Below, piece by piece: positions 1,293 to 17,759 of a stretch of 33,887 nt of DNA. Source of the stretch: a virus (Duplodnaviria; Heunggongvirae; Uroviricota; Caudoviricetes); the IMG/VR virus record IMGVR_UViG_2740892429_000002, positions 1 through 33,887 of that record; one strand, 5' to 3'. Under the pieces are notes generated by a model. The model ran no database searches. It saw only the letters and a program-made list of their open reading frames with translations, and was not told the origin of the DNA. A program made the translations under genes and the position numbers. The stretch's first letter is position 1, and each line of letters opens with the position of its first letter.

Positions 1293-1466
1293 ATGGAAGA
1301 TCAAAAAGCAACCAAGCCACAGGTTAAGTTCGACACAATGAAAGCATTCGCAGGTATGGGGGCTGCTGTTGAAGTTCTGATGAAGGCTGCTCCTAATGCG
1401 TTCACTCACGCTACTGTCTCTGGTAAAGAGCAGCAGGGTAAGCTTCGTCGTCGCAAAGTAGCATGA
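1293..1466 (+). CDS. small hypothetical protein (57 aa)
   Basis: ATG preceded by CTGGAG about 7 nt upstream, ends TGA about 20 nt before a strong hairpin plus T-run. Too short for the ORF track; translated by hand (MEDQKATKPQVKFDTMKAF...). Confidence 0.35.
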   Translation: MEDQKATKPQVKFDTMKAFAGMGAAVEVLMKAAPNAFTHATVSGKEQQGKLRRRKVA

Positions 1467-1485
1467 TCATAGCTGGTGCTTTTTG

Positions 1486-1512
1486 AAAACCCGCCTTTAG
1501 GCGGGTTTTTTC
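1486..1512. terminator. bidirectional rho-independent terminator between convergent transcription units
   Basis: AAAACCCGCC-TTTA-GGCGGGTTTTTT: GC stem flanked by an A-tract and a T-tract, so either strand gives a hairpin followed by a U-run. Confidence 0.65.
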
Positions 1513-1513
1513 T

Positions 1514-1795
1514 TTAGTGATGTTCTTTGCCCTTCTGTTTGCCTGTTCTGACCTGTTCCCACTCGATACGTCCTTCTTCTCGTCTTTTGTCTATGTATTC
1601 CGCAAGATCCTGAATATTGATGCAACGTTTTGCTTTTTGTGATGTGCCGATGCGATATGTTGGAACGGGCAACTTACAAGCGTTTGCTTTTGCTTCTGCC
1701 GTGGCTGGACTCATGCCAAAGTACTTTTGGCTAACTGCTGAGAGTTCAATGTTAGGGGTATTGAATTCAGCCATCAGTAAAAACAAGGTGTTCAT
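1514..1795 (-). CDS. excisionase-like / PrtN-family small DNA-binding protein
   Basis: Occupies the xis position at the end of the early-left operon. The ATG at residue 10 of the track ORF has GGAG about 8 nt upstream; motif CINIQDLAEYIDKRREEG resembles PrtN/excisionase-like proteins (from memory). Confidence 0.5.
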   Translation of the reverse strand: MNTLFLLMAEFNTPNIELSAVSQKYFGMSPATAEAKANACKLPVPTYRIGTSQKAKRCINIQDLAEYIDKRREEGRIEWEQVRTGKQKGKEHH

Positions 1796-1831
1796 AATTT
1801 TCTCCATCAAAACCGGCTGCACCCGGGAAAA

Positions 1832-2407
1832 TCATAATTCTGTGCTGGTGGCAGGAATTAATTTCTGCCAGATAGCGGAAACATATTTTGCCTGATGACG
1901 GGCATCGGCCAGGGCGTTGTGCCGTTCGCCATCGAAAGTCATGTCTATTTTGGGGTCGAATCCGATGGAACGCCCAAGCGTAACGATCGTGCGTACATCG
2001 TGGTCATTCCAGTATGCCCACGGGCAGATTTGTCCTGCTCGCTCATAAGCTCCACGTAAAATTACGTTGTCGAAGGTGGCCCCGTTACCCCAGACTTTTA
2101 AATATTTCGTATTGGCTGCGTGCCGGTTAATGAAATGATTTAGTTCTGAGAGAGCATCGCTGATCGACAAAGTATCATCAATACAGATTGCAGCTCGTGC
2201 TTCAGGGCTTTGTTTCAACCACCACAGGATGGTATCGCCGTCAGGTGTAGCTCCTTGCCCCATAGCACTTTCCAGGCTAACAACCGTATAGAATTCTTGT
2301 CCGATGTCTCCGGTTTCTGGAGTGAAGAACACCGCGCCAATGGAAACGATCGGTGCATCCTTATTTTTCCCCATCGTCTCAAGGTCGATCATTAAGTTGT
2401 TCATCAC
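1832..2407 (-). CDS. DnaQ-like 3'-5' exonuclease (DEDDh)
   Basis: 191 aa; IDLETMG near the N-terminus and HNALADA near the C-terminus are the exonuclease acid/His motifs. AGGTG RBS; ATG overlaps the upstream stop. Confidence 0.75.
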   Translation of the reverse strand: MMNNLMIDLETMGKNKDAPIVSIGAVFFTPETGDIGQEFYTVVSLESAMGQGATPDGDTILWWLKQSPEARAAICIDDTLSISDALSELNHFINRHAANTKYLKVWGNGATFDNVILRGAYERAGQICPWAYWNDHDVRTIVTLGRSIGFDPKIDMTFDGERHNALADARHQAKYVSAIWQKLIPATSTEL

Positions 2408-3219
2408 TTCACCTCTTGTGATGGTTTTGCTGCAAAATACTCGATACCTTTATCCCAGATAGATTTTATGGTCGACCACGTGACTGGCACTTTAATTTCA
2501 ATACGTCCGCTCCCGTCACAGGTATCGCAATCATCATCGCCAAAGCATTCCAGGCAGCTTATAAACGTAGTTTCTGAAAATTCACCGGATAGCACCCCCT
2601 TAGCGCCGTTCTCGGCTGTTAGTCTCTTCGGCACCATAACCCAACCATCCGGAGTTACCGGAGAGTTGCCAGACAGTGCGTTCTGCAATCGTTCCAGCTT
2701 AACGTATTCCTGAACCCTGTTTCCGTCGCACGCCTGAAGCCATTGCACAGCCTTTTGCGCATCAGTGTGAAAGGCACAAGTGCGACCGTCATCAAATTGC
2801 ATTTCGTAGAGGTCAGCAACCTGTTTAAACTGCGTTTGTGGCAACTTGTAAGCCCGGCTTGCAGGTACGGCACTATAGAGCATGGCAGCGCGGCAGGCAT
2901 TCCAGCCTGTAGCGTATGCAGCCGCTTTGCTGCTGCCTTCAACTGGCGCATCCTGCCAATACATTTCTTCCGGCACTACCGGCGCTGGAGGGACAGTGTA
3001 AAGCTGGTGCGTTCCATCAGGCAGCGAGTGACCTACATACTCACCGAACCCGTCAACACACATGCTCCCATCTTCAATAATGCATGACGCTACTGGCTCC
3101 GCTTCCAGCGATGCCAGAGCAATTTCATAAGCCCGGCGCTCAATATTGTCTCGAACGTCCAGGCTGCCTATGCGTTCTTTGATTTCTTTAATCATTTCTT
3201 TGTCGGTTAAAGTTGTCAT
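2404..3219 (-). CDS. hypothetical prophage protein with Cys-rich C-terminal region
   Basis: 271-aa ORF, GAGGA RBS 7 nt upstream, coupled to neighbours; C-terminal CLECFGDDDCDTCDGSG cluster suggests metal binding. Confidence 0.6.
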   Translation of the reverse strand: MTTLTDKEMIKEIKERIGSLDVRDNIERRAYEIALASLEAEPVASCIIEDGSMCVDGFGEYVGHSLPDGTHQLYTVPPAPVVPEEMYWQDAPVEGSSKAAAYATGWNACRAAMLYSAVPASRAYKLPQTQFKQVADLYEMQFDDGRTCAFHTDAQKAVQWLQACDGNRVQEYVKLERLQNALSGNSPVTPDGWVMVPKRLTAENGAKGVLSGEFSETTFISCLECFGDDDCDTCDGSGRIEIKVPVTWSTIKSIWDKGIEYFAAKPSQEVK

Positions 3220-3222
3220 GTG

Positions 3223-3510
3223 TTAGTCCTCATCCACTTCAACGCCATCTTTCAGCGTGATGCCGTGCCAATCATCAGCCCAACTGGTTAGCCCTGGCGC
3301 ATCAATGCTAGGCATATAAACGCTTGCAGTGTGGTAGCCCTTATCGTTATCAATGCTGGCAACGTGCTCGCCGTTGTATGCGCTCAGCGTGTCCAGGACG
3401 CTATAAAACTTTCCTCCGGCTGCCCTGAAATCCTTTACAGCCTTCACAAGGCGATTCCACGCTTTTTCCTGTTCTGGCGTCAGGTCGATTAATTCCTGCA
3501 AAGTTGCCAT
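3223..3510 (-). CDS. hypothetical protein (95 aa)
   Basis: Start moved to the Met at MATLQELIDL, which has GGAGAG upstream and sits 1 nt after the upstream gene's TGA. Confidence 0.5.
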   Translation of the reverse strand: MATLQELIDLTPEQEKAWNRLVKAVKDFRAAGGKFYSVLDTLSAYNGEHVASIDNDKGYHTASVYMPSIDAPGLTSWADDWHGITLKDGVEVDED

Positions 3511-3511
3511 A

Positions 3512-4297
3512 TCACTCTCCTTTGATGCGAATGCCAGCAAGCCAGTTTCTTATGCCGATATATTCAGCGTTCCTGAAACCGCTTTTTACATATACAAATG
3601 GCAAGCGAAGATTGTGACCATTGGCTGCCAGGTAGTCTTTACAACCCTGTTCGGTGAAACAGCAGGTAACGAATTCATCAATATCTTTCACAGCAACGCG
3701 CCGCCATTTTTCTGGTGGCTCTCGAAAGTTTTCATGAAGTAGTTCGAGACGACGACTTTGGCGTTTATTGGCTTCATTGCCATCTTCATCAACCCAGACA
3801 ATCCGGTCATAGTCATAATCAGCATCAACAACGATTTCGCGCTTTTGATACACACAAAACATAGGGTCTGACGTTATATGATTGTCCTGTGTTCGAATAT
3901 TTTCACCGATGATGCCAAACGAATCTGGTGCAGATTTTGTCTGCAACTCTGCTATGCGCTTACTTCCATCCGCGATTACTCCCTCGTAATACACACGCTG
4001 CTCGTTGAGTTTTGATTTTGTCTCCTCAAGCTCAACTCTCAGCTTCCCTACCGTTAGCGCAATATCCTCGTTCTCCTGGTCGCGGAGTTTGATGTATTGC
4101 TGTTTTTCGTCCAGCTCATCCAACAGCCCGGCGATAATGTCCACTTCCCGATGACGGATTTCTCGCTTAAACGCCGCTAAAGCTGCATCACAATCCTGTT
4201 CAGCGTTTGGACTGTCTGGCTTTTCCTGATACCACGCCAGAGTCGATTGATAGTTTTGTGCTGCCTTACGCAACGCCTGATAGTCAATCTCGCTCAC
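3512..4297 (-). CDS. hypothetical protein with coiled-coil N-terminal half (262 aa)
   Basis: The track ORF (3512..4645) has an implausible Arg-rich N-terminus. A GTG start preceded by AAAGGAGG lies inside it (VSEIDYQALRKAA...) and overlaps the stop of the upstream 82-aa gene. Confidence 0.55.
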   Translation of the reverse strand: MSEIDYQALRKAAQNYQSTLAWYQEKPDSPNAEQDCDAALAAFKREIRHREVDIIAGLLDELDEKQQYIKLRDQENEDIALTVGKLRVELEETKSKLNEQRVYYEGVIADGSKRIAELQTKSAPDSFGIIGENIRTQDNHITSDPMFCVYQKREIVVDADYDYDRIVWVDEDGNEANKRQSRRLELLHENFREPPEKWRRVAVKDIDEFVTCCFTEQGCKDYLAANGHNLRLPFVYVKSGFRNAEYIGIRNWLAGIRIKGE

Positions 4298-4532
4298 TGG
4301 TGCCTCCTTTACGGATCTGCGCTGCGATGCACGAAAAAAAAGACTCTCGCGTATGACAGTTAAGAGCTGGTGCGAACGCCGCGTTAAGAACGGCGGCATC
4401 ACAGCCGTCATCAATATAGAGCGCAATTTTTTTCTCCAGGCGCGCTTTGGCTTCCTGCAACTGCATACCCCGGCACGCACGCGGGATATACTCAGCAATT
4501 TGAGCGATAGATTTTTCGTTCTGTTTAAACAT
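4284..4532 (-). CDS. hypothetical small protein (82 aa)
   Basis: ATG overlaps the stop of the upstream 67-aa gene, and its own stop overlaps the downstream GTG start. Confidence 0.5.
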   Translation of the reverse strand: MFKQNEKSIAQIAEYIPRACRGMQLQEAKARLEKKIALYIDDGCDAAVLNAAFAPALNCHTRESFFSCIAAQIRKGGTSERD

Positions 4533-4728
4533 GCTTCACCTCGATAGGCTTGATGGTATCGATCAGCAGTCGGCGGCGAGTATTTTCTGCAAAGTGGCGG
4601 CGTCCGGTTTCTTTGTGGTAAAACTCGTTTTTTCCGACGACCCACATCCGCTTTGTCTGGTGCAGTTTTTTTACCTGCGGACCGTCTCGGGTGATAACAA
4701 TTCCTGTATGAGTTTTTATCACGCTCAT
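4525..4728 (-). CDS. hypothetical small protein (67 aa)
   Basis: ORF in the coupled early-left operon; 4-nt overlap with the upstream gene end. Confidence 0.45.
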   Translation of the reverse strand: MSVIKTHTGIVITRDGPQVKKLHQTKRMWVVGKNEFYHKETGRRHFAENTRRRLLIDTIKPIEVKHV

Positions 4729-5087
4729 TTTTTATTCTCCGGTGCTTTCGGCATTACTGCCCAGTGAGTGATATTGACGTTTTCAAGGTCCCCGACCTGA
4801 AATGTCCACTGCCATTCTCCGGTTTCTTTTTGTCCCCAGGTGTACCAGAGAGAACGCCAGCCAATTAGCCAGCCTTCTCCGTTAGCATCAAATAACAGAA
4901 CACTTTCATTTGCTGGCGGCAGTTCAGCTGACACTGGTATTATTTTGTTTTCCAGTGCCGCACATTTAGCTTCAAGCGCATCGAATTTACGTACCAGGTA
5001 CTCAGCATTTGTTTCATTCACTTTCAGATCTCGTGGTACACATTTCCCGCGAAGAAACCCTTCCATTTCGAAAACATTCATGCGCAT
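4725..5087 (-). CDS. hypothetical early-left protein (120 aa), YfdS-like by size and position
   Basis: ORF overlapping the upstream HD-domain gene by 10 nt. Size and order match the CPS-53 yfdP-Q-R-S block (recollection only). Confidence 0.5.
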   Translation of the reverse strand: MRMNVFEMEGFLRGKCVPRDLKVNETNAEYLVRKFDALEAKCAALENKIIPVSAELPPANESVLLFDANGEGWLIGWRSLWYTWGQKETGEWQWTFQVGDLENVNITHWAVMPKAPENKK

Positions 5088-5614
5088 GTGCGTAACTCCG
5101 ATAACTCGTTAAAGCGCTCCATAAACATCCCGTAGGCATGGCTCGGAGCCAGTGGAATAACTTTGAACATTTCTGTTGCCGGGATACCTTCCAGTACTGG
5201 CCAGAAAGAGCCATCATCAAGCCCGAGATCGCGGCGTTCGGTTGCCAGCATGATGAGATCGGCATATTTCACAGGCGTGCTCATAACCGGGGGTAACCCG
5301 TATTTCTCACGGATTACGGCGTCTATTTTTTCTTCCATCCGTTTATAGTCAGGAAGAAGGCGTTTCAGTGGAGCGGGAATGTCCTGGCAATACGCTTCTG
5401 TTGCATCATGCATTAACGCTTCAAAAGCAAATTCCTGCGGCACCAGCTGGCTGCAAAGCACCGCATGCTGGGCGACACTGTAGAAGTGTGAAAGATGTCC
5501 TGCAAAGCGACAGATATTTGAAAGGGAAACCGCGATATCGTTAATCACGATGTCGTCTTTATTTATCTTGTCATAATAAAAATGCTTCCCGGAAAAAGTT
5601 TTAATAAATGACAT
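5078..5614 (-). CDS. HD-domain phosphohydrolase (YfdR / 5'-deoxynucleotidase-like)
   Basis: Start set at MSFIKTF (GTGGAG RBS). Motifs ICRFAGH and HDATEAYCQDIP fit the HD metal-binding pattern. Confidence 0.7.
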   Translation of the reverse strand: MSFIKTFSGKHFYYDKINKDDIVINDIAVSLSNICRFAGHLSHFYSVAQHAVLCSQLVPQEFAFEALMHDATEAYCQDIPAPLKRLLPDYKRMEEKIDAVIREKYGLPPVMSTPVKYADLIMLATERRDLGLDDGSFWPVLEGIPATEMFKVIPLAPSHAYGMFMERFNELSELRTCA

Positions 5615-5742
5615 TTCGTTCTCCACTTTATATGCGCTGCACCGCGCTGAATTCGGGTAAAAGGAATCCCGCACCATCCGGCGATTATTGAGTTAATTAC
5701 GTTTCCATAAATGCCCCCGCAGGGGCATTTGCAGTAATGAAA

Positions 5743-6567
5743 TCAGGCGGTGAAAGTACCAATAAAGGTTTCTACTTTGCTGTCTTTGAATTTCTCAACA
5801 AGCAGATCACGAAATTCGTTAGCCATTTCTTCCTGCACTGCTTCCAGCTGAATAATGCGCAGAACCAGTACAGGACGATCGCCAGTGATAATGCTGAGGC
5901 GTAATTTAAATGGACGTTCTTTCAGACCTTCAAACGGAACGCATTTAAATTCAAATGCCACTGGCATAATATCTTTGGTTTTCGCTTCGACAGACTCCAT
6001 CAGGGAGCGTTTGCCGCTGAAGTCATTATCTTCAAAATCAGCGGTCTGGTTTGCTTCAATCGTGATTTTACGGACAGCCGCAGCCGCTTTTGTTGCCTGA
6101 ATAGCGTCACCATTAGCATCAAAGCCCACAAGGTAGTCGGCCCAGTCTTCAATCCATTCTGCCAGTGACTTCTGGGAATGACGCTCGCCGTTAACAGACA
6201 ACAGAGCAGAGAACGGTGCTGTCTTTTTCAGTTTGAGAGTGGCGGTGTTATCTGCGTGACCTGGTTCATCAATAGTACCCAGGTTAAGCACACTGACGGC
6301 TCGCATATTATCGGCATCGATAAAGCAGCGGGTGCCTTCATCTGCAAGATCTTTAGAATAACGGGTAAAGTCATCGATGCTGGCAGTGGAAAGCGCACCA
6401 CGGAAACGGAAGCGATTTAAATTAAATTTTTCCAGATCATGAATGCGGAAATTCTCAGGCAATGCCACAGCATCGGCACCAATCTTACTGATAATTTCAT
6501 TAACACCCTGAGCAGAAATAAGAGCATGGATTTGATTAATTGCGGTTGCGTCTAAGTTCTGAGACAT
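5743..6567 (-). CDS. DUF2303 / YfdQ-like protein
   Basis: 274 aa, GAGGA RBS. The N-terminus [11 protein letters not shown] and the size match my recollection of CPS-53 YfdQ. Confidence 0.6.
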
Positions 6568-6632
6568 AATAAGTCCTCACTATATAAAGATATTCAGTGA
6601 TGAGATAAATAATCAGTTAATTAAGAACGATA

Positions 6633-6995
6633 TTAATGACCTGCTGCGCGGAGTTTTCCGTCAGGTTCACCGGCAAGAGTCAGTAATTGTCCCTGGTCTT
6701 CCTGCAGAATAGTCAGGCGACCACCGCGATTGACATACATCGGCGTTTCGGTGGTGTCTTCTTCAGAAATTTTCCCGCGGTTAGTCGGGCGAACATATGA
6801 AAGTTTGTGTTTGATTTTCACACGGTTCTCATCAAACGGTTCGATTTCCAGGTTGAGCGAGACCTTACCTTTGGTTTTCGTGTTCATCACACCGGAAGCG
6901 ACTTCACTGAGAACAGCGCCGATTTTGGTTTCAAATACGCCGCCGTCCAGCTCCCCGATAAATGCCTGCACATCAGTACTGCGTTCGCTAGCCAT
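6633..6995 (-). CDS. hypothetical protein (120 aa), first gene of the early-left operon (YfdP-like)
   Basis: The track ORF extends into the leader. The Met at MASERSTDV has GAGGAG 7 nt upstream and gives 120 aa. Confidence 0.55.
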   Translation of the reverse strand: MASERSTDVQAFIGELDGGVFETKIGAVLSEVASGVMNTKTKGKVSLNLEIEPFDENRVKIKHKLSYVRPTNRGKISEEDTTETPMYVNRGGRLTILQEDQGQLLTLAGEPDGKLRAAGH

Positions 6996-7129
6996 TTTGC
7001 TGCTCCTCATCATATCGACCCTGCAAGGTCGGTTGGTTTCTCCACAAAACAGAGAAGAACACCTGCGGTGACTGCCGCCCGGATGGATTGGGTTATGAGC
7101 CCGTCGTCCGGTGATGCTCTTCTCTGTTT

Positions 7130-7178
7130 TGTAAAAAGAGCGGTACCAGCCGGAAGCAAGTGTACAAACTGGTACCGC
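7130..7178 (-). terminator. rho-independent terminator in the early-left leader
   Basis: On the minus strand, GCGGTACCAG ... CTGGTACCGC (perfect 10-bp arms) followed by UCUUUUUAC. Confidence 0.5.
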
Positions 7179-7620
7179 CAAAGCAGTGGCTGTTGTGGTG
7201 ACCGGTGCTGATCTCCGGCTTGCGGTTATTTCAGACTCTCACGGGCGTTTAATTGCCCCGCCGAACAGCTCTTTTCCGCAATAGCTGCAATGTCTTTCGC
7301 GCATCAGCCTGCGCATTCACCACAACGCTGAGAGCACTTAGCCAGTTACGGCACCACACTTTGTCGCGGTTCCATAAATGCCCTCATCGTTGCACCCTGG
7401 TCTCTTCCCAGGCGTCAAACCGAATCGCCACGCTGGTTAGGCGTCTTATCAGCATCCTCATTGACTTGCACATTCCGGCTACCTGGTTTGTCTGCTCGAG
7501 CAAGGAGTGGATTGTCCCCTTTAACGTCCCCAGACCGCTAACGACGCATGTGCCATACGCCGTGTTACAACCAAATTTTGTTAGGACCTTGTTTGTTGGT
7601 CTGGAAAGAAAGATAAAATG

Positions 7621-7662
7621 AAATTGCGTAATGTGCAAGTGTTTTGTTGCGAGATATGCAAT
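7621..7662. promoter_or_regulatory. OL-like operator pair / PL region
   Basis: Two 15-bp sites, TTGCGTAATGTGCAA and TTGCGAGATATGCAA (TTGC-N7-GCAA), 24 bp apart, the same pattern as at OR. Confidence 0.45.
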
Positions 7663-7671
7663 AGCGTGAGT

Positions 7672-7700
7672 AATGAAAAGCCACCTTCTGGTGGCTAATT
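7672..7700 (-). terminator. terminator downstream of the repressor gene
   Basis: On the minus strand, GCCACC-AGAA-GGUGGC followed by UUUUCAUU, directly after the cI-like stop. Confidence 0.55.
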
Positions 7701-7717
7701 GATGTTGAGGTAGGGGG

Positions 7718-8410
7718 TTAATTGTGTCGCTTAAGGGTTTGTGACTGACTGATTAAGACCTTTCCAAAGACCATAAACCGGTGTTCGTTTTCGCTGGTAA
7801 TTCCCCATTCGCGGTAAATCTGATTATCAGAAATTACCAGCAGTTTATCAGGTATCATTTGCAGTCGTTTGACGTAAATTTTATCATCAAAACCAAATAC
7901 ATATATACCATCCCCATCAAACTGATTGATACTGATATCAACGAAGATGAGATCTCCTGGCTCAATGGTTGGACACATACTGTCCCCACGAACGTTGATA
8001 ACTTTAATGTGATTTGCTGGTCGTCCACCAAACATCGATACAGCATTATCAGTTCTGTATTCAATGGCATGAATCACATCAATGACATCACCGCCCTGGA
8101 TAAGGCCATTTCCCGCACTGGCACTGACATCCAGCATTTCAATACGGAATACATCCTTCACCTGCGCAACATCCTCACTAATACTGTTTTTACATACAGT
8201 ATTACTTTTGAGGTCTGAGGTAAAGAGATCAGCAATATCAACACCTAAGCTCCTGGCAATATTACTCAGGGCTTGTTCAGTGAATTGTTTCTGCTTACCT
8301 GTTTCGAGGCGCGAGATATTCGCCGCATCCACTCCTATTGCTTCAGCGAGATCGGCGATTTTCATGTTCTTCGCCTGGCGAAGTTGTCTGACTCGATTTC
8401 CTATGTTCAT
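7718..8410 (-). CDS. cI: CI-like prophage repressor (HTH_XRE plus S24 LexA-type peptidase)
   Basis: 230 aa; N-terminal HTH (IADLAEAIGVDAANISRLETG), C-terminal GDSMCPTI serine motif and KR dyad. Divergent from cro across an operator-rich intergenic region. Confidence 0.9.
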   Translation of the reverse strand: MNIGNRVRQLRQAKNMKIADLAEAIGVDAANISRLETGKQKQFTEQALSNIARSLGVDIADLFTSDLKSNTVCKNSISEDVAQVKDVFRIEMLDVSASAGNGLIQGGDVIDVIHAIEYRTDNAVSMFGGRPANHIKVINVRGDSMCPTIEPGDLIFVDISINQFDGDGIYVFGFDDKIYVKRLQMIPDKLLVISDNQIYREWGITSENEHRFMVFGKVLISQSQTLKRHN

Positions 8411-8507
8411 GCGTTTATTACATTTCTTTATTGCGCGTTAAGCAAATCAACTTGCGCAAAATATTTGCGTGAAATAATATGCTCATCACGCAATATGTGG
8501 AGGTTAT
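8411..8507. promoter_or_regulatory. OR operators with divergent PRM/PR promoters
   Basis: TTGCGCGTTAAGCAA (8431-8445), near-palindrome CGCAAAATATTTGCG, and TGCGTGA...TCACGCA. Candidate PR -35 TTGCGC (about 8452) and -10 TAATAT (about 8475). No SD precedes the cI ATG. Confidence 0.55.
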
Positions 8508-8768
8508 ATGCAATCACCATTACGGAATGTGCGTAAGGCGCACGGATTTACTTTGCAGCATGTTGCTGCGGGCGTTCAGGTCAATCCAGCGACGCTGAGT
8601 CGTATTGAAAGACTGGAACAAATTCCATCTATCGATCTTGCAGAACGTCTGGCCAATTTTTTTAAGGGTGAAATCAGCGAAATGCAGATTCTTTATCCGG
8701 CACGTTTTCAATCTAGCCAAAACCAGAATGGGTTTAAACCACAGGAACAGGAGGTAAGCCGTGGGTAA
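8508..8768 (+). CDS. cro: Cro-like HTH regulator
   Basis: 86 aa with HTH_XRE motif (LQHVAAGVQVNPATLSRIE), GGAGG RBS, first rightward gene. Confidence 0.75.
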   Translation: MQSPLRNVRKAHGFTLQHVAAGVQVNPATLSRIERLEQIPSIDLAERLANFFKGEISEMQILYPARFQSSQNQNGFKPQEQEVSRG

Positions 8769-9312
8769 GCATCATTGGAAAGTGGAAAAACAACCTGAAT
8801 GGTACGTGAAAGCTGTCAGAAAAACTATCGCGGCATTGCCTGGGGGTTACGCTGAAGCTGCTGACTGGCTGGATGTAACAGAGAACGCTTTATTCAACCG
8901 CCTTCGTGCAGATGGCGATCAGATTTTCCCGCTGGGATGGGCAATGGTTTTACAGCGCGCGGCTGGCACTCACTACATTGCGGATGCTGTCGCACAGTCT
9001 GCTGGTGGGGTGTTCGTATCGCTTCCTGAAATTGAGGAAGTAGAGAACGCCGATATAAACCAGCGCCTGCTGGAAGTCATCGAACAGATCGGGAATTACT
9101 CAAAGCAGATTCGTTCGGCAATCGAAGATGGGGTCGTGGAGCCACACGAGCAGACAGCAATTAATGATGAGTTGTATCTGTCAATTTCGAAGCTCCAGGA
9201 GCATGCAGCACTGGTCTACAAAATCTTCTGCGCTCCAGAAAAGAGTGACGCCCGCGAGTGTGCAGCTCCGGGCGTCGTGGCGTTTTGTGTCTGTGGAGAA
9301 ACTAACGCATGA
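8761..9312 (+). CDS. CII-position regulatory protein (CII/YdaT-like)
   Basis: 183 aa, GTG start after AGGAGG. The position after cro suggests a lysogeny-establishment regulator; family assignment is uncertain. Confidence 0.45.
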   Translation: MGKHHWKVEKQPEWYVKAVRKTIAALPGGYAEAADWLDVTENALFNRLRADGDQIFPLGWAMVLQRAAGTHYIADAVAQSAGGVFVSLPEIEEVENADINQRLLEVIEQIGNYSKQIRSAIEDGVVEPHEQTAINDELYLSISKLQEHAALVYKIFCAPEKSDARECAAPGVVAFCVCGETNA

Positions 9313-9722
9313 ACAGTTTAACGGCAAATAACCGTTTGTCGCAACAGCTGGTGGTCAGTGTCGCTGAACACCTGTTGTTACGGCATGAATGCAGATTACC
9401 AAATCACTTGGCTGTAAGTAACCACAGAGAACTTTACCTGACTGTGGGGGGCGAGTTGTGCAGGAACTTAACCGCTGGTTTCGTGACGGAAGAGGGCTTT
9501 ATGTCCATGTTATTCGTTGGGAGCCAGAAACACAGCGCGTTATCTATCTTCGCAAAGACTACCCGCATGAGTGCTTTAGTCCTTTGTGGAAATTCAGGCG
9601 TGATTTTGTTGAGTGTGAAGGACCACCAGCACATTGATTCTGCCATTCCGGGACGTTACACTGTTCAGGCACCTTATAAAGCGGGTGCCGGGCGTGGAAA
9701 CTCGGAATTCACCAAAGCGCAC

Positions 9723-9746
9723 AACCGCGCTCTTGCGGTTTTTTTG
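9723..9746 (+). terminator. intrinsic terminator in the early-right operon
   Basis: AACCGC-GCTCTT-GCGGTT followed by TTTTTTT. Confidence 0.5.
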
Positions 9747-9914
9747 TGTAATGAGCAGCATTACGCCCAAATTATGGTGGGGCGTGCAGGGCCAACTTCG
9801 GTTGGGCCGGGTTCTTTGGTGACCGGTATTTCCACCCCTGTACGTCTCACCACCAATAAGGTCGTGGAAAGCCTTGGTGGTGAGTTATTAAAAATCACCA
9901 AAGAGGCTGCCATC

Positions 9915-10460
9915 ATGGCTACGATCCCAACCCTCACTCAACCTGAAATTGCCATCGTTGATGGTCAGGCTGTTACTTCATCCCTGGCTGTTGCCAACTT
10001 CTTCTCCAAACGTCATGACGATGTACTGAAAAAGATCCGCACGCTTGAATGCTCTGCATCATTCACTTCCCGCAATTTTTCGGCGAGTGATTACACCGAT
10101 TGCACAGGCCGCAAACTACCTTGCTATCAAATAACCCGCGACGGCTTTGCGTTTCTTGCTATGGGTTTCACGGGTAAACGTGCTGCCCAGTTCAAAGAGG
10201 CATACATCAATGCCTTTAACCAGATGGAGAAACAGCTTTCAAATCCCTCTGTACTGAGCGACGTTGCACATAACGCCAGCGTTCTCTATTCCTACATTTC
10301 ATCAATTCATCAGGTCTGGCTGCAGCAGCTTTATCCTATGTTGGCAAAAGCCGAATCTCCGCTGGCTGTTAGCTTGTATGACTATATTAATGATGCTTCG
10401 GCACTGGCCTGCCTCATAAATTTGTCGCTGAACCCTTCAGAGGTAAGGGGGCGCAAATGA
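9915..10460 (+). CDS. Rha-family phage regulatory protein
   Basis: Internal ATG (AAGAGG upstream) of the long track ORF. The N-terminal motif TSSLAVANFFSKRHDDVLKKIRTL is the Rha signature. Confidence 0.75.
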   Translation: MATIPTLTQPEIAIVDGQAVTSSLAVANFFSKRHDDVLKKIRTLECSASFTSRNFSASDYTDCTGRKLPCYQITRDGFAFLAMGFTGKRAAQFKEAYINAFNQMEKQLSNPSVLSDVAHNASVLYSYISSIHQVWLQQLYPMLAKAESPLAVSLYDYINDASALACLINLSLNPSEVRGRK

Positions 10461-10681
10461 TCCGGAATATTTTCAAACGGTTTACCAATCAGACTTTCCG
10501 TTGTCCTCGTCCGGGTCAGTGGTACACCACACCTGCAGGGCATGTTCTACGTGTTAGCCTGGTTGACCGTGAATGTCAGAAGGTGATTTGTGAACCGCTG
10601 GGCCGTAGTTACCGCGTCAGTATGCCGCTTATAGCCTTTCGCTCCGGAAAAAACATGAAGCATCTCGGAGGTGCTGCATGA
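10457..10681 (+). CDS. hypothetical small protein (74 aa)
   Basis: ATGA-coupled to Rha upstream and to the initiator gene downstream. Confidence 0.45.
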   Translation: MIRNIFKRFTNQTFRCPRPGQWYTTPAGHVLRVSLVDRECQKVICEPLGRSYRVSMPLIAFRSGKNMKHLGGAA

Positions 10682-11496
10682 GTATGGAGCTGATGGTTAA
10701 AGCGATGAAAATTCGAGTGGGTAATCCATTGCGAAAACTGGTTCTGATCAAGCTGGCTGATAATGCCAGCGATCAGGGGGAGTGCTGGCCCAGCTACCAG
10801 CATATTGCTGACCAGTGCGAGATTAGTAAACGTTCTGTGATGAATCATATTGCGGCCCTTTGTGAGTCCGGGCTGGTAAAAAAAGTCACTCGGAAAGGTG
10901 AAAAAGGTAACTCAAGTAATATCTATCTCCTTCATCTGGATGGTGCAGGAGATTCACTAGGGGGTAGTGCAAATAATTCACTATCTGGTGCAGCAAATTC
11001 ACCAGGTAGTGCAGGAGTTGCACCAGGGGGTAGTGCAGGAGATTCACCCAGAACCAGTCACTCTTTTGAACCAGTCAAAGAACCAGTCAATGAACCAATA
11101 GCTGTTGGTGCATCAGTTGATGAGTCCGTGCGAGTTCGTTCAAACCGACCGGAATACTCTCCGGAGTTTGAGCAGGCATGGCTGGCATATCCCAAACGTG
11201 CTGGTGGCAATTCAAAATCTGCAGCCTTCAAAGCCTGGAAAGCCCGTTTGAATGAGGGAGTAAACCCCGAAACCATGCTGGAAGGTGTGAAACGCTACGC
11301 GGGCTGGGTATCTGCGATGGGTAACAGCGGCACACAATTTGTGAAACAGGCTGTCACGTTCTTTGGTCCGGATCGTCATTTCGAAGAATCCTGGGAAGTT
11401 CCTGCGGTATCTGCAGCCAGACGCGAGGACCCGTACTTCAAAGCCAGTTACGACAACGTGGACTACAGCCAGATCCCGGCAGGATTCAGGGGGTGA
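10678..11496 (+). CDS. replication initiator (O-like) with N-terminal HTH and low-complexity linker
   Basis: 272 aa, GGAGGTG RBS. N-terminal wHTH (LADNASDQGECWPSYQHIADQCEISKRSVMNHIAAL); Gly/Ser/Ala linker encoded by DNA iterons; conserved C-terminal domain. Confidence 0.65.
   Translation: MSMELMVKAMKIRVGNPLRKLVLIKLADNASDQGECWPSYQHIADQCEISKRSVMNHIAALCESGLVKKVTRKGEKGNSSNIYLLHLDGAGDSLGGSANNSLSGAANSPGSAGVAPGGSAGDSPRTSHSFEPVKEPVNEPIAVGASVDESVRVRSNRPEYSPEFEQAWLAYPKRAGGNSKSAAFKAWKARLNEGVNPETMLEGVKRYAGWVSAMGNSGTQFVKQAVTFFGPDRHFEESWEVPAVSAARREDPYFKASYDNVDYSQIPAGFRG
10943..11089. repeat. iteron cluster (candidate replication origin) inside the initiator gene
   Basis: GTGCAGGAGATTCAC twice (about 10943 and 11033), GGTAGTGCA three times, and GAACCAGTCA three times in tandem (11051, 11068, 11080). 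Confidence 0.55.
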
Positions 11497-11498
11497 TT

Positions 11499-11987
11499 AT
11501 GAGTCTTTTGAATGAAGTTAAGAAATTCATTGAAGCCCATCCGGGGTGTACTTCCGGAGACATTGCGGATGCTTTTGCAGGTTACTCACGACAGCGCGTT
11601 CTGCAGTCAGCAAGCAAGTTACGTCAGAGTGGGCGTGTGGCTCACCGTTGTGAAGGAGATACACGCAGACATTTCCCGCGCCTGACTGAGAGAGCGCAGG
11701 AGCCGGAACCACAACCAGTTCGTGAAACCAGACCTGTGCGCAATTTCTATGTCGGCACTAACGATCCCCGGGTGATTTTGTGCCTGACCCGCCAGGCTGA
11801 AGAACTGGAGTCTAGGGGCTTATACCGTCGTGCTGCAACGGTGTGGATGGCGGCATTCCGTGAAAGCCACTCCCAGCCAGAACGAAACAATTTTCTGGCG
11901 CGTCGTGAGCAGTGCTTACAGAAAAGCAGCAAGCGCGCAGCATCGGGTGAAGAGTGGTATCTGTCAGGGAATTACGTGGGGGCTTAA
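11499..11987 (+). CDS. PerC-family transcriptional regulator-like protein
   Basis: ATG after GGGGG. C-terminal AEELESRGLYRRAATVWMAAF...RREQCL matches the PerC/Pch pattern. Confidence 0.55.
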   Translation: MSLLNEVKKFIEAHPGCTSGDIADAFAGYSRQRVLQSASKLRQSGRVAHRCEGDTRRHFPRLTERAQEPEPQPVRETRPVRNFYVGTNDPRVILCLTRQAEELESRGLYRRAATVWMAAFRESHSQPERNNFLARREQCLQKSSKRAASGEEWYLSGNYVGA

Positions 11988-12640
11988 TGAGTAATAAATA
12001 TTGTCAGGCACTGGTGGAACTGCGGAACAAACCAGCCCATGAACTGAAGGAAGTGGGCGATCAGTGGCGCACGCCGGACAACATTTTCTGGGGAATTAAC
12101 ACTCTGTTTGGCCCGTTTGTTCTGGATCTGTTTACTGACGGTGATAACGCCAAATGTGCCGCGTATTACACGGCGGAAGATAACGCGCTGGCGCATGACT
12201 GGTCAGAACGTCTTGCGGAGCTTAAAGGTGCTGCCTTTGGTAATCCCCCATACAGCCGCGCCAGTCAGCATGAGGGGCAATACATCACCGGCATGCGTTA
12301 CATCATGAAACATGCCAGTGCCATGCGTGATAAGGGCGGGCGCTATGTTTTCCTGATCAAAGCGGCCACCAGCGAAGTGTGGTGGCCGGAAGATGCAGAC
12401 CATATTGCTTTTATTCGCGGGCGTATTGGTTTTGAACTGCCTGCCTGGTTTATCCCGAAAGACGAGAAGCAGGTGCCGACAGGCGCTTTCTTCGCTGGTG
12501 CTATTGCTGTTTTCGATAAGACCTGGAAGGGACCGGCAATCAGCTACATCGGGCGCGATGAACTTGAGGCATGTGGTGAGGCGTTTCTGGCGCAGGTTCG
12601 CCAGCAGGCGGAAAAACTGGTCAGGGAGATGGCGGCATGA
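11987..12640 (+). CDS. phage Dam-type DNA N6-adenine methyltransferase
   Basis: Start at MSNKYCQ (overlaps the upstream TAA, TAATG). Catalytic FGNPPYS motif. Confidence 0.8.
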   Translation: MSNKYCQALVELRNKPAHELKEVGDQWRTPDNIFWGINTLFGPFVLDLFTDGDNAKCAAYYTAEDNALAHDWSERLAELKGAAFGNPPYSRASQHEGQYITGMRYIMKHASAMRDKGGRYVFLIKAATSEVWWPEDADHIAFIRGRIGFELPAWFIPKDEKQVPTGAFFAGAIAVFDKTWKGPAISYIGRDELEACGEAFLAQVRQQAEKLVREMAA

Positions 12641-12963
12641 CGACGTTAACTCAATGCCAGCAGCAGGTGCTGGATATGCTGATTTCTTACCAGAAAGAAC
12701 GTGGCTTCCCGCCAACTAATCAGGAGGTGGCAACCATGCTGGGATACCGTTCAGTGAATGCAGCGGTGGAGCATCTTCGCGCACTGGAGAAAAAAGGCGT
12801 CATCACGATAAAGCGTGGCGTGGCACGGGGGATAACGCTTCATACCGCGGTGAAGGACGACGACAGCGAGGCAGCCGGGATTATCCGCGCACTGCTTGCC
12901 GGTGAGGAAAACGCCAGACTGCGTGCAGCCCACTGGTTACATGAGAGGGGCCTGAAAGTATGA
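12637..12963 (+). CDS. LexA N-terminal DNA-binding-domain-only protein
   Basis: 108 aa. MTTLTQCQQQVLDMLISYQKERGFPPTNQEVATMLGYRSVNAAVEHLRALEKKGVI parallels the LexA wHTH; there is no S24 peptidase domain. Confidence 0.7.
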   Translation: MTTLTQCQQQVLDMLISYQKERGFPPTNQEVATMLGYRSVNAAVEHLRALEKKGVITIKRGVARGITLHTAVKDDDSEAAGIIRALLAGEENARLRAAHWLHERGLKV

Positions 12964-13349
12964 AGCTGATCCTGCCTTTCCCGCCCAGCGTGAACACGTA
13001 CTGGCGACACCCCAACAAAGGGGCGTTTGCTGGTAAGAGTCTGATAAGCGCAGCGGGGCGCAAATTCCAGAGCGCGGCATGCGCAGCAATAGTTGAGCAG
13101 TTACGTCGTCTGCCGAAACCAACGTCGGCACCTGCTTCAGTGGAGATCGTGTTGTTTCCTCCGGATAACCGGATCCGCGATCTGGACAACTATAACAAGG
13201 CGCTGTTTGACGCCCTGACCCACGCGGGTGTGTGGGAAGACGACAGACAGGTGAAAAGAATGCTGGTGGAGTGGGGACCGGTTATCCCGAAAGGGAAGGT
13301 CGAGATCACTATCAGTAAGTACGAGAAAACGGCGGGTGCAGCCGCCTGA
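12960..13349 (+). CDS. rusA: RusA Holliday-junction resolvase
   Basis: 129 aa with RusA motifs (PPSVNTYWRH, DLDNYNKALFDALTHAGVWEDD). Confidence 0.85.
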   Translation: MKLILPFPPSVNTYWRHPNKGAFAGKSLISAAGRKFQSAACAAIVEQLRRLPKPTSAPASVEIVLFPPDNRIRDLDNYNKALFDALTHAGVWEDDRQVKRMLVEWGPVIPKGKVEITISKYEKTAGAAA

Positions 13350-13368
13350 TCAAGAGGAGAAACGAAGT

Positions 13369-14166
13369 ATGAATAATCTGATGGTCATTGATGGTATTGA
13401 AGTTCGTCGTGATGCTTATGGTCGTTACAGCCTGAACGATTTGCACAGGGCTGCCGGTTCTCTGGATAAGCATAAGCCTGCATTCTGGCTCCGCAATGAG
13501 CAAACTGAACGTTTAATAAGCGAGTTGCAGATTTGCAACTCGGTCAATATAGAGCCAGTTAACGTTATTCGTGGCGGAAATAGCCAGGGGACGTATGTCT
13601 GCAAAGAACTGGTGTATGCCTATGCAATGTGGATCAGCCCGTCATTCCATCTGAAGGTGATCCGTACTTTCGACATGGTAACCAGCGCACCGGAAAAATT
13701 ATCCGGACAGGCTGCTGACAAGATGCAGGCTGGTGTGATCCTGCTGGACTTTATGCGCCGGGAATTAAACCTGTCTAACTCATCAGTGCTTGGAGCCTGT
13801 CAGAAACTCCAGGAGGCTGTTGGCTTACCGAATCTGGCACCGCGCTATGCCATTGATGCTCCTGCTGACGCGCCTGATGGCTCAAGCCGCCCCACGCTGT
13901 CACTGAGTGCACTGCTGAAGCAGTATGGTATCCGCCTGACAGCTAATCAGGCATATCACCAGATGGCGAAGCTGGGGATCGTTGAACAACGTGAACGATA
14001 CAGCCGCACTGCGATTAACAACATCAAAAAATTCTGGTCGCTGACGGCGAAAGGCTGCATGTTCGGCAAGAACATCACCAGTCCCGCAAATCCGCGCGAG
14101 ACGCAGCCGCATTTCTTCGAATCCCGGTTCCCTGAGCTGTTAAAGCTGCTCGATACCGTTCATTGA
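13369..14166 (+). CDS. KilA-N domain protein (anti-repressor-like)
   Basis: Start at MNNLMVIDGIEV with AGGAG RBS. N-terminal KilA-N-like region (GRYSLNDLHRAAG...KPAFWLRNEQT). Confidence 0.65.
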   Translation: MNNLMVIDGIEVRRDAYGRYSLNDLHRAAGSLDKHKPAFWLRNEQTERLISELQICNSVNIEPVNVIRGGNSQGTYVCKELVYAYAMWISPSFHLKVIRTFDMVTSAPEKLSGQAADKMQAGVILLDFMRRELNLSNSSVLGACQKLQEAVGLPNLAPRYAIDAPADAPDGSSRPTLSLSALLKQYGIRLTANQAYHQMAKLGIVEQRERYSRTAINNIKKFWSLTAKGCMFGKNITSPANPRETQPHFFESRFPELLKLLDTVH

Positions 14167-14167
14167 G

Positions 14168-15163
14168 GTGACCGTGAGAGCGCTACTGACCCCTGAAATT
14201 GCCCCGCGTATGGGGATCGTATTGTTCAGGCCCGGTTCAGAGCTGATGCCCCTGTTTATGCAGGGGCGTGTCCTGCTGGAGCCTGAGCCGGAACGTTATT
14301 CATCTTTCGCCAGTGGTGCCGTTCCGGCGGCATCACAACCGCTGGCGGATGATCCTGCCGTTCGGGCCGTGTTCCGCAATGAGGCAGTGATTCGTCGTGC
14401 TGGTGGAGTGGAATGTCTTGAACGCTGGTTACTTCGTGAAAAAGGTTGCCAGTGGCCTCATTCCGACTGGCACAGCGAGAACATGACCACAATGCGACAC
14501 ACGCCGGGCGCAATCCGTCTGTGCTGGCACTGCGATAACCAGCTGCGCGATCAGTTCACGGAACGGCTGGAATCAATGGCAACGGATAACTGTACCCGCT
14601 GGGTGTTGTCTGTTGTGCGTCGGGATCTCGGTTTTGATGACAGTCACGTTGTGACAATGCCGGAACTGTGCTGGTGGCTGATTCGTAATGACCTGGCGGA
14701 TGCCTTACCGGAAAGTGCAGCCCGTAAGGCACTGAGATTACCGAAGCCTGTTGTGCCGTCTGTCACCCGGGAAAGTGACCTTGTGCCTTCGGTTCCTGCC
14801 ACCAGCATCATCCAGGATAAAGCGAAAAAGGTGCTGGCGCTGAAAGTGGATCCAGAGTCGCCGGAGTCTTTTATGTTACGCCCAAAACGTCGCCGCTGGG
14901 TTAATGAAAAGTACACGCGCTGGGTTAAGACACAGCCGTGTGCATGTTGTGGAAAGCCTGCTGATGATCCCCACCACCTGATAGGTCACGGTCAGGGTGG
15001 AATGGGAACAAAAGCGCATGACCTTTTTGTGTTGCCTTTGTGCAGAAAGCATCACGACGAGCTGCATGCGGATACCGTGGCATTTGAAGAGAAGTATGGC
15101 TCCCAACTGGAGCTGATATTTCGTTTTATCGATCGTGCGCTGGCAATTGGCGTGCTGGCCTGA
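14168..15163 (+). CDS. DUF968-type nin-region protein with HNH-like zinc-finger C-terminus
   Basis: 331 aa. C-terminal [28 protein letters not shown]...CRKHHDELH. Start codon uncertain (GTG at 14168 or a downstream ATG). Confidence 0.55.
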
Positions 15164-15180
15164 TTTTGTGGAGAAAGTTG

Positions 15181-15546
15181 ATGCGTGATATTCAAATGGT
15201 TCTTGAACGTTGGGGGGCATGGGTGGCAAATAATCACGAGGATGTCACCTGGTCGTCTATTGCTGCAGGATTTAAAGGACTAATCCCTTCAAAAGTAAAA
15301 TCCCGCCCGCAATGTTGTGACGATGACGCGATGATCATTTGTGGGTGCATGGCTCGCCTGAAAAAGAACAACAGCGATTTGCACGATTTATTAGTGGATT
15401 ATTATGTAGGTGGTATGACGTTTATGGCGCTTGCCCGTAAACATGGGCGTTCTGATTGCTGGGTTGGGCGTTTATTGCAAAAGGCTGAAGGTGTAGTTGA
15501 TGGCATGTTAATGATGTTAGAAATTGAGCTAGAGATGGATCGTTAG
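15181..15546 (+). CDS. Q: late-gene antiterminator Q
   Basis: ATG after [43 protein letters not shown] matches the Q family of phage 82/DLP12 (QuuD-like) as I recall it. Confidence 0.75.
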
Positions 15547-15588
15547 AAGACCTCTTATTGAGGGGGTAATTGAATCAGTTTAATGTGT

Positions 15589-15620
15589 GGGGAGTCGATT
15601 TATTCTCCCCATTTTATTTA
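15589..15620 (+). terminator. intrinsic terminator downstream of Q
   Basis: GGGGAG-N10-CTCCCC followed by ATTTTATTTA. Confidence 0.5.
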
Positions 15621-15630
15621 ATTAGTTTAC

Positions 15631-16077
15631 TTAAGGTTTTAATTCATCAAGACGTTGTTGGATAGTGTTTTTGCTTGCGTTGTCTGTTATAGCCATTTGT
15701 TGTACTTGCCCCATTGCCATTTGAGTTTCCATCCACATATCGGCCCACACTTTTGTATCGTTATTAACTTGAGCGATAGTAAATCTGACTTTTGATACCG
15801 GGGTTGTTGAATAGGCATTTCCGATTAACATTTGTCCAAAAAAAGCAGAGCCGCCTTCCAGTTCTTTACCACATATAACACTGCTGTTATCCGCGTTGTA
15901 AATTATCAACCCTCTACTATTGCAGTAATTCACAAGGGCATCTTTGACTTTATCTTTTGTCGTATTTTGATAAACCCCCTCAGGTTTTCCTGATTGAGTT
16001 TTCTTTATCAATGGTACGGAAGAAGTACAACCTGAAATGATAGTTGCGCTAAGTAATAGTACAGTCATTTTATTCAT
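15631..16077 (-). CDS. lipoprotein of unknown function (moron, opposite strand)
   Basis: 148 aa with signal peptide and lipobox (LLLSATIISGC). Markedly AT-rich relative to its neighbours; transcribed against the flanking phage genes. Confidence 0.7.
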   Translation of the reverse strand: MNKMTVLLLSATIISGCTSSVPLIKKTQSGKPEGVYQNTTKDKVKDALVNYCNSRGLIIYNADNSSVICGKELEGGSAFFGQMLIGNAYSTTPVSKVRFTIAQVNNDTKVWADMWMETQMAMGQVQQMAITDNASKNTIQQRLDELKP

Positions 16078-16142
16078 GTTTCTTATCCATTGCTAAGGGT
16101 ATACCCACACAATTATTTTTATTGGAGATGAATAATCAACCG

Positions 16143-17755: not shown

Positions 17756-17759
17756 TCTG

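Follow-up and report, generated by a model that had tools for sequence, protein, structure and literature searches.

Lambdoid phages of enterobacteria differ in whether they carry a recombination (Rec) module of their own, and in a recent survey 68 of 314 such phages were found to have none (Zheng, Casjens, Davidson, Amundsen and Smith, Genome Res 2025). These Rec-less phages often bear a cluster of the genes yfdR, yfdQ and yfdP, and stray DnaQ-type nucleases near int were excluded from Rec modules in that survey. Their genomes are strongly enriched in Chi sites oriented so as to be active for RecBCD that enters at the right cos end, and the sites cluster at that end. The growth of the prototype, phage LLS, is enhanced by RecBCD, and the closest relative of the LLS repressor is that of phage mEp460_4F5 (Zheng et al., 2025). 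The class A to which such phages belong is defined by 8 or more active and no more than 6 inactive Chi sites with clustering at the right end (Zheng et al., 2025), and its counterpart in an earlier classification is the Rec- Inh- class (Bobay et al., 2013). The present analysis concerns positions 1832-5087 of a DNA stretch of 33,887 nucleotides, referred to as the window, from a virus of the Caudoviricetes (IMG/VR record IMGVR_UViG_2740892429_000002). An original prediction, made from the letters of the window alone, had described these positions as an early-left operon of tightly coupled genes with an exonuclease and no recognisable recombinase. The stretch is very probably the distal, non-essential ea/exo-xis part of the leftward early operon of a lambdoid prophage of the mEp460/SfV/CPS-53 type, which belongs to a Rec-less and Chi-rich phage.

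Seven tightly packed minus-strand genes make up 1832-5087, a DEDDh exonuclease among them. The operon is not confined to this stretch and forms an uninterrupted minus-strand run from about 7000 (yfdP) to xis at 1514. The start sites chosen agree with the annotation of near-identical E. coli prophages by the NCBI Prokaryotic Genome Annotation Pipeline (PGAP) and with that of phage mEp460. The features are as follows, with protein lengths in amino acids (aa).

7718-8410, above the minus-strand run: cI-like S24 repressor gene
6633-6995, minus strand: yfdP-like, first gene to be recognised in the early-left operon; 'protein YfdP' in the PGAP annotation of near-identical prophages
5743-6567, minus strand: yfdQ (DUF2303), at the position of the Rec module in other lambdoid phages
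5078-5614, minus strand: yfdR, HD-domain 5'-deoxynucleotidase-like protein; PHROG 318
4725-5087, minus strand: yfdS, 120 aa; N-terminal helix and DUF551
4525-4728, minus strand: g67, 67 aa; PHROG 1226, function label unknown
4284-4532, minus strand: g82, 82 aa; PHROG 1344, function label unknown
3512-4297, minus strand: Ea22-family gene, 261 aa; GTG start
3223-3510, minus strand: g95, 95 aa; PHROG 2821, function label unknown
2404-3219, minus strand: g271, 271 aa; modular YfdT/EaA family
1832-2404, minus strand: DexA/Rv2179c-type DEDDh 3'-5' exonuclease, 190 aa; PF16473
1514-1822, minus strand: xis, PrtN-type excisionase, at the end of the operon; PF11112 (E 4e-23), PHROG 1300 'excisionase'
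1485-1510, no strand assigned: GC-rich hairpin with an 11-bp stem from a terminator scan, separating xis from the convergent plus-strand genes; the leftward transcript probably ends here

The reported absence of Bet, RecT, Erf, Gam and Kil was confirmed by Pfam, PHROG and NCBIfam and by tblastn against all six frames of the whole window (E <= 0.01), with proteins of lambda, P22, Rac and HK620 as queries. No tblastn match in the window was obtained for Exo, Bet, Gam or Kil of lambda, for Erf, Arf, Abc1, Abc2 or Kil of P22, for RecT, RecE or KilR of Rac, or for Sak4, SSB (single-stranded DNA-binding protein), HkaM or Abc2 of HK620. Likewise, relatives of Bet, RecT, Erf, Sak4, Gam, Abc, Kil, RecE and lambda Exo were not detected with the three family collections. 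GamL and MuGam, covered only by the Pfam, PHROG and NCBIfam scans of the operon proteins and by annotation, were also not found, and no anti-RecBCD protein is annotated in a prophage that is 99% identical to the window. None of the three components by which a Rec module is recognised (a strand-annealing protein, a contiguous 5'-3' resection nuclease and an anti-RecBCD protein) was found.

The reference proteins that do match the window are those of the ea region only, namely Ea22 of lambda, EaA and EaD of P22, and HkaE, HkaG and HkaH of HK620. On the maps of lambda, P22 and HK620 the ea genes are flanked by the Rec module on one side and by xis on the other. Since they are downstream of the Rec module in all three references, 1832-5087 is the ea/exo-xis region and not a degenerate Rec module, the place of which is taken by yfdP-yfdQ-yfdR. 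The idea that an exonuclease without a recombinase marks a gap in a recombination module has to be given up accordingly, as the stretch is an accessory region and the enzyme is of the DexA type, with a predicted 3'-5' polarity, and lies beside xis. RusA is the sole recombination gene both in the PGAP annotation of the 99%-identical prophage and in the mEp460 record. The annotation of that prophage, which is carried by E. coli strain 1290, was also transferred to plus-strand positions of about 11987-12640, 12960-13349 and 16715-17767 in the right arm of the window. The functions transferred are a Dam-like N6-adenine methyltransferase, a second DNA methyltransferase before the lysis genes and the RusA Holliday-junction resolvase; the two methyltransferases and RusA are the only recombination- or restriction-related functions annotated in the prophage.

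The window holds 20 Chi sites (GCTGGTGG), against 1.34 expected and a maximum of 5 in 100 shuffles. They are divided between the strands in a ratio of 4:1 (16 plus, 4 minus), and collinearity with the mEp460 record identifies the plus strand as the top strand.

Chi, plus strand: 1844, 9001, 9347, 11200, 13262, 14399, 14670, 16260, 16581, 17401, 17740, 19334, 20834, 21363, 21831, 24869
Chi, minus strand: 9623, 12366, 14799, 17395
1844-1851, plus strand: Chi GCTGGTGG, the only one inside 1832-5087, in the 3' end of the exonuclease gene; kept in mEp460 at 26021

The sites at 17395 (minus) and 17401 (plus) overlap back to back. Eleven of the 16 top-strand sites fall at 9001-19341, a part of the window that includes the early-right, nin and lysis region and lies between cI and cos, the latter being placed, on the basis of the terminase genes, at about 20.1-20.7 kb. 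The complete mEp460 genome, counted in the same analysis, gave a matching picture of 20 Chi sites, of which 16 are on the top and 4 on the bottom strand, with 11 of the 16 in the right-most 26%. By every sequence criterion (no Rec module gene, the Chi counts and the right-end clustering, which was judged by position as the window is part of a prophage) the window belongs to class A. This match explains the absent recombinase by known biology. The likeness to LLS-type phages extends to the lambdoid layout, to the lack of a module of SSB, nuclease, single-strand annealing protein and anti-RecBCD protein, to the yfdR/Q/P cluster, to the stray DnaQ-type nuclease near int and to the 16 active against 4 inactive Chi sites before cos in the window. 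The growth of LLS is known to be enhanced by RecBCD, whereas the window phage is known from sequence, as part of a prophage. By analogy, a phage without its own Rec module would rely on host RecBCD and RecA, activated by correctly oriented Chi sites, and the phage RusA resolvase would join RecBCD and RecA in making concatemers.

The missing module could also be explained by decay, in which case the Rec module would have been lost by deletion and the other genes would be relics. CPS-53 of E. coli K-12, which has the same yfdPQRST genes, is indeed a defective remnant, and g271 or the Ea22-like gene is broken in some genomes. However, mEp460 is recorded as a complete phage genome and has the same operon without a Rec module, and all open reading frames (ORFs) of 1832-5087 are intact and tightly coupled. 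Moreover, the Rec proteins used as tblastn queries were matched in none of 80 related viral contigs, fetched for an exonuclease identity of at least 95%. The Chi enrichment, its strand bias and its right-end clustering indicate long-term adaptation, and decay is therefore most improbable.

The 99%-identical prophage adjoins zur in strain 1290 and has int and dinI at its far end; the window is hence the attL-proximal three-quarters of a lambda-like cos prophage. At positions 1400-7300 the window shows 97-98% nucleotide identity to phages mEp460 and mEp460_4F5 over 69-74% of the length (68-74% when phiSTEC1575-Stx2k is included in the group), and several Shiga toxin (Stx) phages are similarly close. 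The stretch 1832-5087 is itself, in parts, 97-99% identical to mEp460 and to thousands of E. coli prophages. Among 5426 complete E. coli genomes, 3895 hold pieces of it, but only 5 have 80% or more of it in one place. The order yfdP-yfdQ-yfdR-yfdS, small ORFs, Ea22-like gene, small ORF, EaA/DUF551-type protein, exonuclease and PrtN-type xis is common to the window, mEp460/mEp460_4F5 and phiSTEC1575-Stx2k (and to orf29-31 of SfV). The middle of the operon differs in mEp460, where an Ea22 variant of 184 aa, an ORF of 63 aa and a DUF551 protein of 250 aa take the place of the window's 261-aa Ea22 variant, g95 and 271-aa zinc-finger protein. In K-12 the yfdPQRST genes of CPS-53 (KpLE1) encode a YfdS that is 100% and a YfdR that is 98% identical to those of the window, with the same 10-nt yfdR/yfdS overlap. 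CPS-53, in contrast, has no g67, g82, g95, Ea22-like or exonuclease gene; the YfdT of CPS-53 is a short form of 101 aa, and its xis is TorI instead of the PrtN type.

The exo-xis region of lambda, the ea genes of P22 (eaA-eaI) and hkaD-hkaI of HK620 occupy the same place beside xis in the distal part of the operon of the leftward promoter (PL). These regions and the window stretch are alike in being non-essential and mosaic, and the ea/exo-xis region is dispensable in lambda and P22. The modules held in common are the Ea22/EaD N-terminus with its coiled coil, the EaA-type linkers and the HkaH N-terminus. The differences are that lambda, P22 and HK620 have a Rec module upstream (Red, Erf/Abc and Sak4/SSB/Abc2, respectively) where the window has yfdPQR, that homologues of orf60a, orf61, orf63 and ea8.5 are absent from the window, and that the C-terminal domains are not the same. 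In close relatives, shuffling is seen below the level of whole genes. For example, in E. coli KE54 (7681-8708 of its locus) an 'XF1762 family' gene replaces the C-terminal domain of the Ea22-like protein and leaves a truncated Ea22 pseudogene. Similarly, in strain 1290 (7714-8454 of its locus) the g271 gene has been divided into a pseudogene and a 'DnaJ' fragment.

The description of a tightly packed early-left operon agrees with the gene map and the junction spacing. Overlaps of 4 nt (ATGA), 8 nt and 14 nt join yfdS to g67, g67 to g82 and g82 to the Ea22-like gene, and g271 overlaps the exonuclease gene by 1 nt (TGATG). The Ea22-like gene and g95 are separated by 1 nt (TGAtATG), and g95 and g271 by 3 nt. 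Hence the statement that nearly every boundary overlaps holds for four of the six internal junctions, the other two being short gaps of 1 and 3 nt. The unit is not self-contained, as the packing continues on both sides with a 10-nt overlap of yfdR and yfdS and a 9-nt gap between the exonuclease gene and xis, in a run that extends from yfdP to xis. A Shine-Dalgarno sequence of the GGAG/GAGG type precedes each start in 1832-5087 by 5-10 nt, and AAAGGAGG is located 6 nt 5' of the GTG start (4297) of the Ea22-like gene. Two mechanical calls were rejected as over-extended. One is a 377-aa ORF at 3512-4645 that spans g82 and g67 in other frames (the Ea22-like start is GTG 4297), and the other is a 105-aa ORF at 3223-3540 (the g95 start is ATG 3510). 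The stop-to-start packing would be consistent with a single transcript read by coupled ribosomes. About 8 of the 12 same-strand junctions of the early-right operon overlap too (PGAP annotation of a near-identical prophage), and the tight packing is therefore a general property of the phage and no hallmark of 1832-5087.

The predicted DnaQ-superfamily exonuclease is verified by PF16473 (E 1.4e-74; 250 bits, with a cut-off of 27; all 177 profile positions covered). Its best relative of solved structure is T4 DexA (PDB 8KEL, E 2.6e-11), which itself scores 80 bits in PF16473 and is 33% identical to it in a full-length alignment. The exonuclease is the shorter of the two (190 aa against 227 aa) and is without the extra loops of DexA. 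The DEDDh residues D7, E9, D112, H162 and D167 are invariant with DexA. The DexA paper gives D7, D119, H186 and D191 as catalytic residues and prints the first-motif acidic residue as E12; the pairing of E9 with this acid rests on the invariant alignment column. DexA degrades DNA in the 3'-5' direction. If the polarity is the same, it would be the wrong one for making 3' tails for an annealing protein, and the enzyme would not be a 5'-3' resection partner. Several phage records label the protein as RecE or 'exodeoxyribonuclease VIII', a name that was rejected as there is no RecE similarity. It is most likely an accessory nuclease that trims 3' ends or degrades DNA to mononucleotides as DexA does, and not an orphan Red-type partner.

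A role of the enzyme in defence has a precedent in EcD (HREX), an E. coli homologue of DexA that is reported to cut T4 DNA and to protect cells, and E. coli is the source of 38% of bacterial DexA homologues. The exonuclease might likewise be an HREX-type prophage nuclease directed against the 5-hydroxymethylcytosine (5hmC) DNA of superinfecting T-even phages, and W132, the equivalent of DexA W152, is conserved as this would require. HREX enzymes are marked by the loss of the D90-type contact with retention of W152 and D169. Here S80 and D83, which correspond to the tetramer residues S87 and D90 of DexA, are kept, while EcD has an alanine at the D90 position. A serine stands at the position of D169, a residue needed for the recognition of 5hmC, in the C-terminal third, where the alignment is weak. 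Furthermore, the phage that encodes the exonuclease is temperate and has unmodified DNA, and the exonuclease gene lies at the end of a repressor-controlled early operon, from which expression in the lysogen would be doubtful. A defence nuclease of this kind is unlikely, and, judged from the weak alignment by the published criteria, the enzyme looks nearer to general DexA than to the 5hmC-specific defence form.

The proteins of the repressor-proximal block are closely related to those of K-12. YfdS is identical to K-12 YfdS at 117 of 117 residues, its DUF551 domain (PF04448) scores 22.2 bits against a cut-off of 22, and its N-terminal 40 aa are 75% identical to HkaH of HK620. YfdR is 98% identical to the K-12 protein, which binds domain I of DnaA. 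In K-12, multicopy yfdQ and yfdR together with either yfdS or yfdT inhibit initiation at oriC, and an ancestral host-takeover role was suggested by the authors of that study. The modulation with the best support in the operon would thus be a dampening of DnaA-dependent initiation by YfdR with YfdQ and the YfdS/YfdT-type proteins. The yfdP-like gene product gave no Pfam match, and only noise even at E <= 1.

YfdQ is also the best candidate for a hidden Rec module, in which an unrecognised annealing or end-protecting protein (failing YfdQ, g271 or the Ea22-like protein) would act with the exonuclease. Its gene stands at the usual place of the Rec module and is found together with the exonuclease gene in 56 of 62 relatives. 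For K-12, a weak sensitivity to methyl methanesulfonate has been reported on deletion of yfdQ, and the deposited structure of a YfdQ homologue (PDB 9O7M, 'YfdQ Protein') has 36 chains, which implies a large oligomer. The fold of YfdQ has no clear relative in the PDB, and the YfdQ model does not show the fold of a strand-annealing protein. Phage ArgO145, moreover, has the yfd cluster alongside a complete Rec module (Zheng et al., 2025), and a hidden module is very unlikely.

The Ea22-like protein matches PF13935 (E 6e-23, 82 bits against a cut-off of 27) and consists, from residue 1 to about 120, of the Ead/Ea22 N-terminus and a coiled coil. It is 54% identical to lambda Ea22 over residues 1-102, where the match ends, and also matches P22 EaD and HK620 HkaG. 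The C-terminal domain is a non-lambda one (PHROG 3205). The C-terminal domain of lambda Ea22, solved by nuclear magnetic resonance, is absent, and the PDB sequence search did not find it. The exact protein is present on 137 contigs. Ea22 of lambda and of Stx phages favours lysogeny, and in lambda both the replication of the host and the choice between lysis and lysogeny are influenced by genes from the exo-xis region. By analogy, the Ea22-family protein may tilt the phage to lysogeny, and the proteins of the operon other than the exonuclease would modulate the host and the lysis-lysogeny decision.

The g271 protein is built of a conserved N-terminal helix (residues 1-42), variable middle modules and an invariant C-terminal zinc-finger domain of the form CxxC...CxxCxGxG (185-271), which PGAP sometimes labels 'DnaJ'. 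The helix is 81% identical to K-12 YfdT, with which the last few residues are also common, and a middle piece is 44% identical to P22 EaA over 94 aa (EaA residues 179-272). More than 7400 mosaic homologues join the N-terminal helix and a linker ('GWNACRAAML...PVSQTYKLP') to DUF551, DUF550, Ea22 and other modules. P22 EaA itself (eaA, 2759-3712 of the P22 record) has PF04447 (dATP/dGTP pyrophosphohydrolase, formerly DUF550) and DUF551. Some members of the YfdT/EaA mosaic family are therefore predicted to carry a nucleotide-hydrolysing enzymatic module. Such a module is lacking in g271, which has no Pfam match and hence neither the DUF550 nor the DUF551 module of P22 EaA. An AlphaFold2 model of g271 from a 53-sequence alignment was too poor for a fold search (predicted local distance difference test score 48, predicted template modelling score 0.27). 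For g67, g82, g95, the Ea22-like C-terminal domain and the two sub-domains of g271, Pfam at E <= 1 gave only noise (LTXXQ, Pirin_C_2). No match below E 0.08 came from searches of PDB sequences with g95, the Ea22-like protein or the g271 profile, and NCBIfam on the operon proteins gave nothing useful. The count of about six proteins of unknown function is right in that six are without an assigned function, though three belong to the named families YfdS, YfdT/EaA and Ea22.

The contigs related by exonuclease identity clearly show two conserved blocks that flank a zone of fast-exchanging cassettes. Of the 80, 62 extend upstream by 8 kb or more, and of these all 62 carry xis, 60 carry yfdR, and 56 each carry yfdQ and yfdP. 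The genes between yfdR and the exonuclease are less constant, with full-length yfdS in 31 of the 62, g67 and g82 in 16 each, g95 in 2, this Ea22 variant in 1 and a full-length g271 in none. In 77 of the 80 contigs yfdR and the exonuclease gene share a strand, and there the distance between them varies from 637 bp up to 3560 bp. Dozens of ORF families, by mechanical calls, occur in this interval, with occasional genes resembling those of methyltransferases and of 3'-phosphoadenosine 5'-phosphosulfate (PAPS) reductase. The operon may be seen, then, as a conserved repressor-proximal yfdP-yfdQ-yfdR followed by yfdS, by variable small or modular genes, and by the DexA-type exonuclease and the excisionase.

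The variable cassette fits accessory, possibly conflict-related roles, and equally the normal behaviour of a lambdoid ea region. A variable protein (g67, g82, the Ea22-like protein, g95 or g271) could counter a host defence or shut down a host process early in infection, an explanation that is compatible with an accessory ea/exo-xis region and is possible without being probable. The slot turns over very fast between near-identical operons, as expected of genes in an arms race, and the methyltransferase-like and PAPS-reductase-like genes of relatives lie within it. The contribution of K-12 YfdS and YfdT to the inhibition of DnaA-dependent initiation and the effects of lambda exo-xis genes point in the same direction. 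On the other hand, lambdoid ea regions are all typically highly mosaic, which by itself is no sign of anti-defence, and the ea region is dispensable in the two phages named above. PADLOC gave only a weak Cas-associated DEDDh match, to the exonuclease, the PHROG labels of the candidates all read 'unknown function', and neither the PDB nor Pfam offered a clue at relaxed thresholds. The anti-defence role put forward in the original prediction thus finds its sole footing in the variability of the slot among relatives and gains nothing from functional PADLOC or PHROG matches. The host-takeover role has experimental support that is indirect and comes only from homologues, namely YfdR, YfdQ, YfdS and YfdT of K-12, beside the pro-lysogenic effect of Ea22 proteins. 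The opposite outcome, in which all ORFs fall into characterised housekeeping families, was not observed.

Several points weigh against the assignment to a Rec-less phage with an accessory ea/exo-xis region as it is drawn here. The dependence on RecBCD is extrapolated from phage LLS, and the effect of YfdQRST on initiation was observed on overexpression only and is conceded by its authors to be a possible artefact. The 36-chain YfdQ structure exists, and a literature search gave no paper that mentions 9O7M. As g67, g82, g95, the Ea22-like C-terminal domain and most of g271 are without an informative homologue, they may have a hidden activity. Lastly, the 80 loci were chosen by an exonuclease identity of at least 95% and hence represent one lineage only.

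Other features of the prophage deserve mention. On the plus strand, a Panacea/SocA-domain antitoxin-like gene lies at 265-837 (PF13274, E 1.8e-18; 'Panacea domain-containing protein' in the PGAP annotation of near-identical prophages), and a 139-aa ORF without a family match at 834-1253 overlaps it by 4 nt. Together they look like a PanA-type toxin-antitoxin pair between attL and xis. Rfam matches above the gathering score were found on the plus strand for the Hfq-binding RNA isrK (9669-9745, 62.5 bits) and for the C4 antisense RNA (9770-9857, 83.6 bits). Since both lie just upstream of a Rha/antirepressor-type gene in the early-right operon, an antisense control of the antirepressor in the style of P1/P7 is predicted.

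Between yfdP and the repressor gene about 720 bp (7000-7717) are unannotated. A hairpin at 7679-7696 lies directly after the repressor gene, the inverted repeat ACTTGCACATT occurs at 7464-7474 and 7630-7640, and CACGC(A/T)AT-like half-sites are found in both 7610-7670 and the cI-cro spacer (8449-8500). By visual inspection these suggest that 7610-7670 is the left operator with the leftward promoter (OL/PL) and 8449-8500 the right operator (OR); the features in 7000-7717 presumably comprise OL/PL and any nut site. The promoter scan gave no convincing PL, and no N-like gene was recognised in 7000-7717.

Both the operon with its named members and a lifestyle without a recombinase and with many Chi sites are already known from the literature and from thousands of genomes. 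The value of the locus lies in a clean and intact example of class A, with a sharply bounded variable slot between the yfdPQR(S) and exonuclease-xis blocks. The cassette at 2404-4728 may be a reservoir of early effectors with an unrecognised inhibitor of defence, replication or repair (g67, g82, g95, the Ea22 C-terminal domain or the g271 zinc finger); alternatively, an oligomeric YfdQ may provide a function related to DNA ends or recombination that helps Rec-less phages work with RecBCD. Both suggestions are speculative and rather unlikely. The variable slot is nevertheless a reasonable place to seek small early phage effectors, and the exonuclease and YfdQ are targets for understanding how Rec-less phages coexist with active RecBCD.

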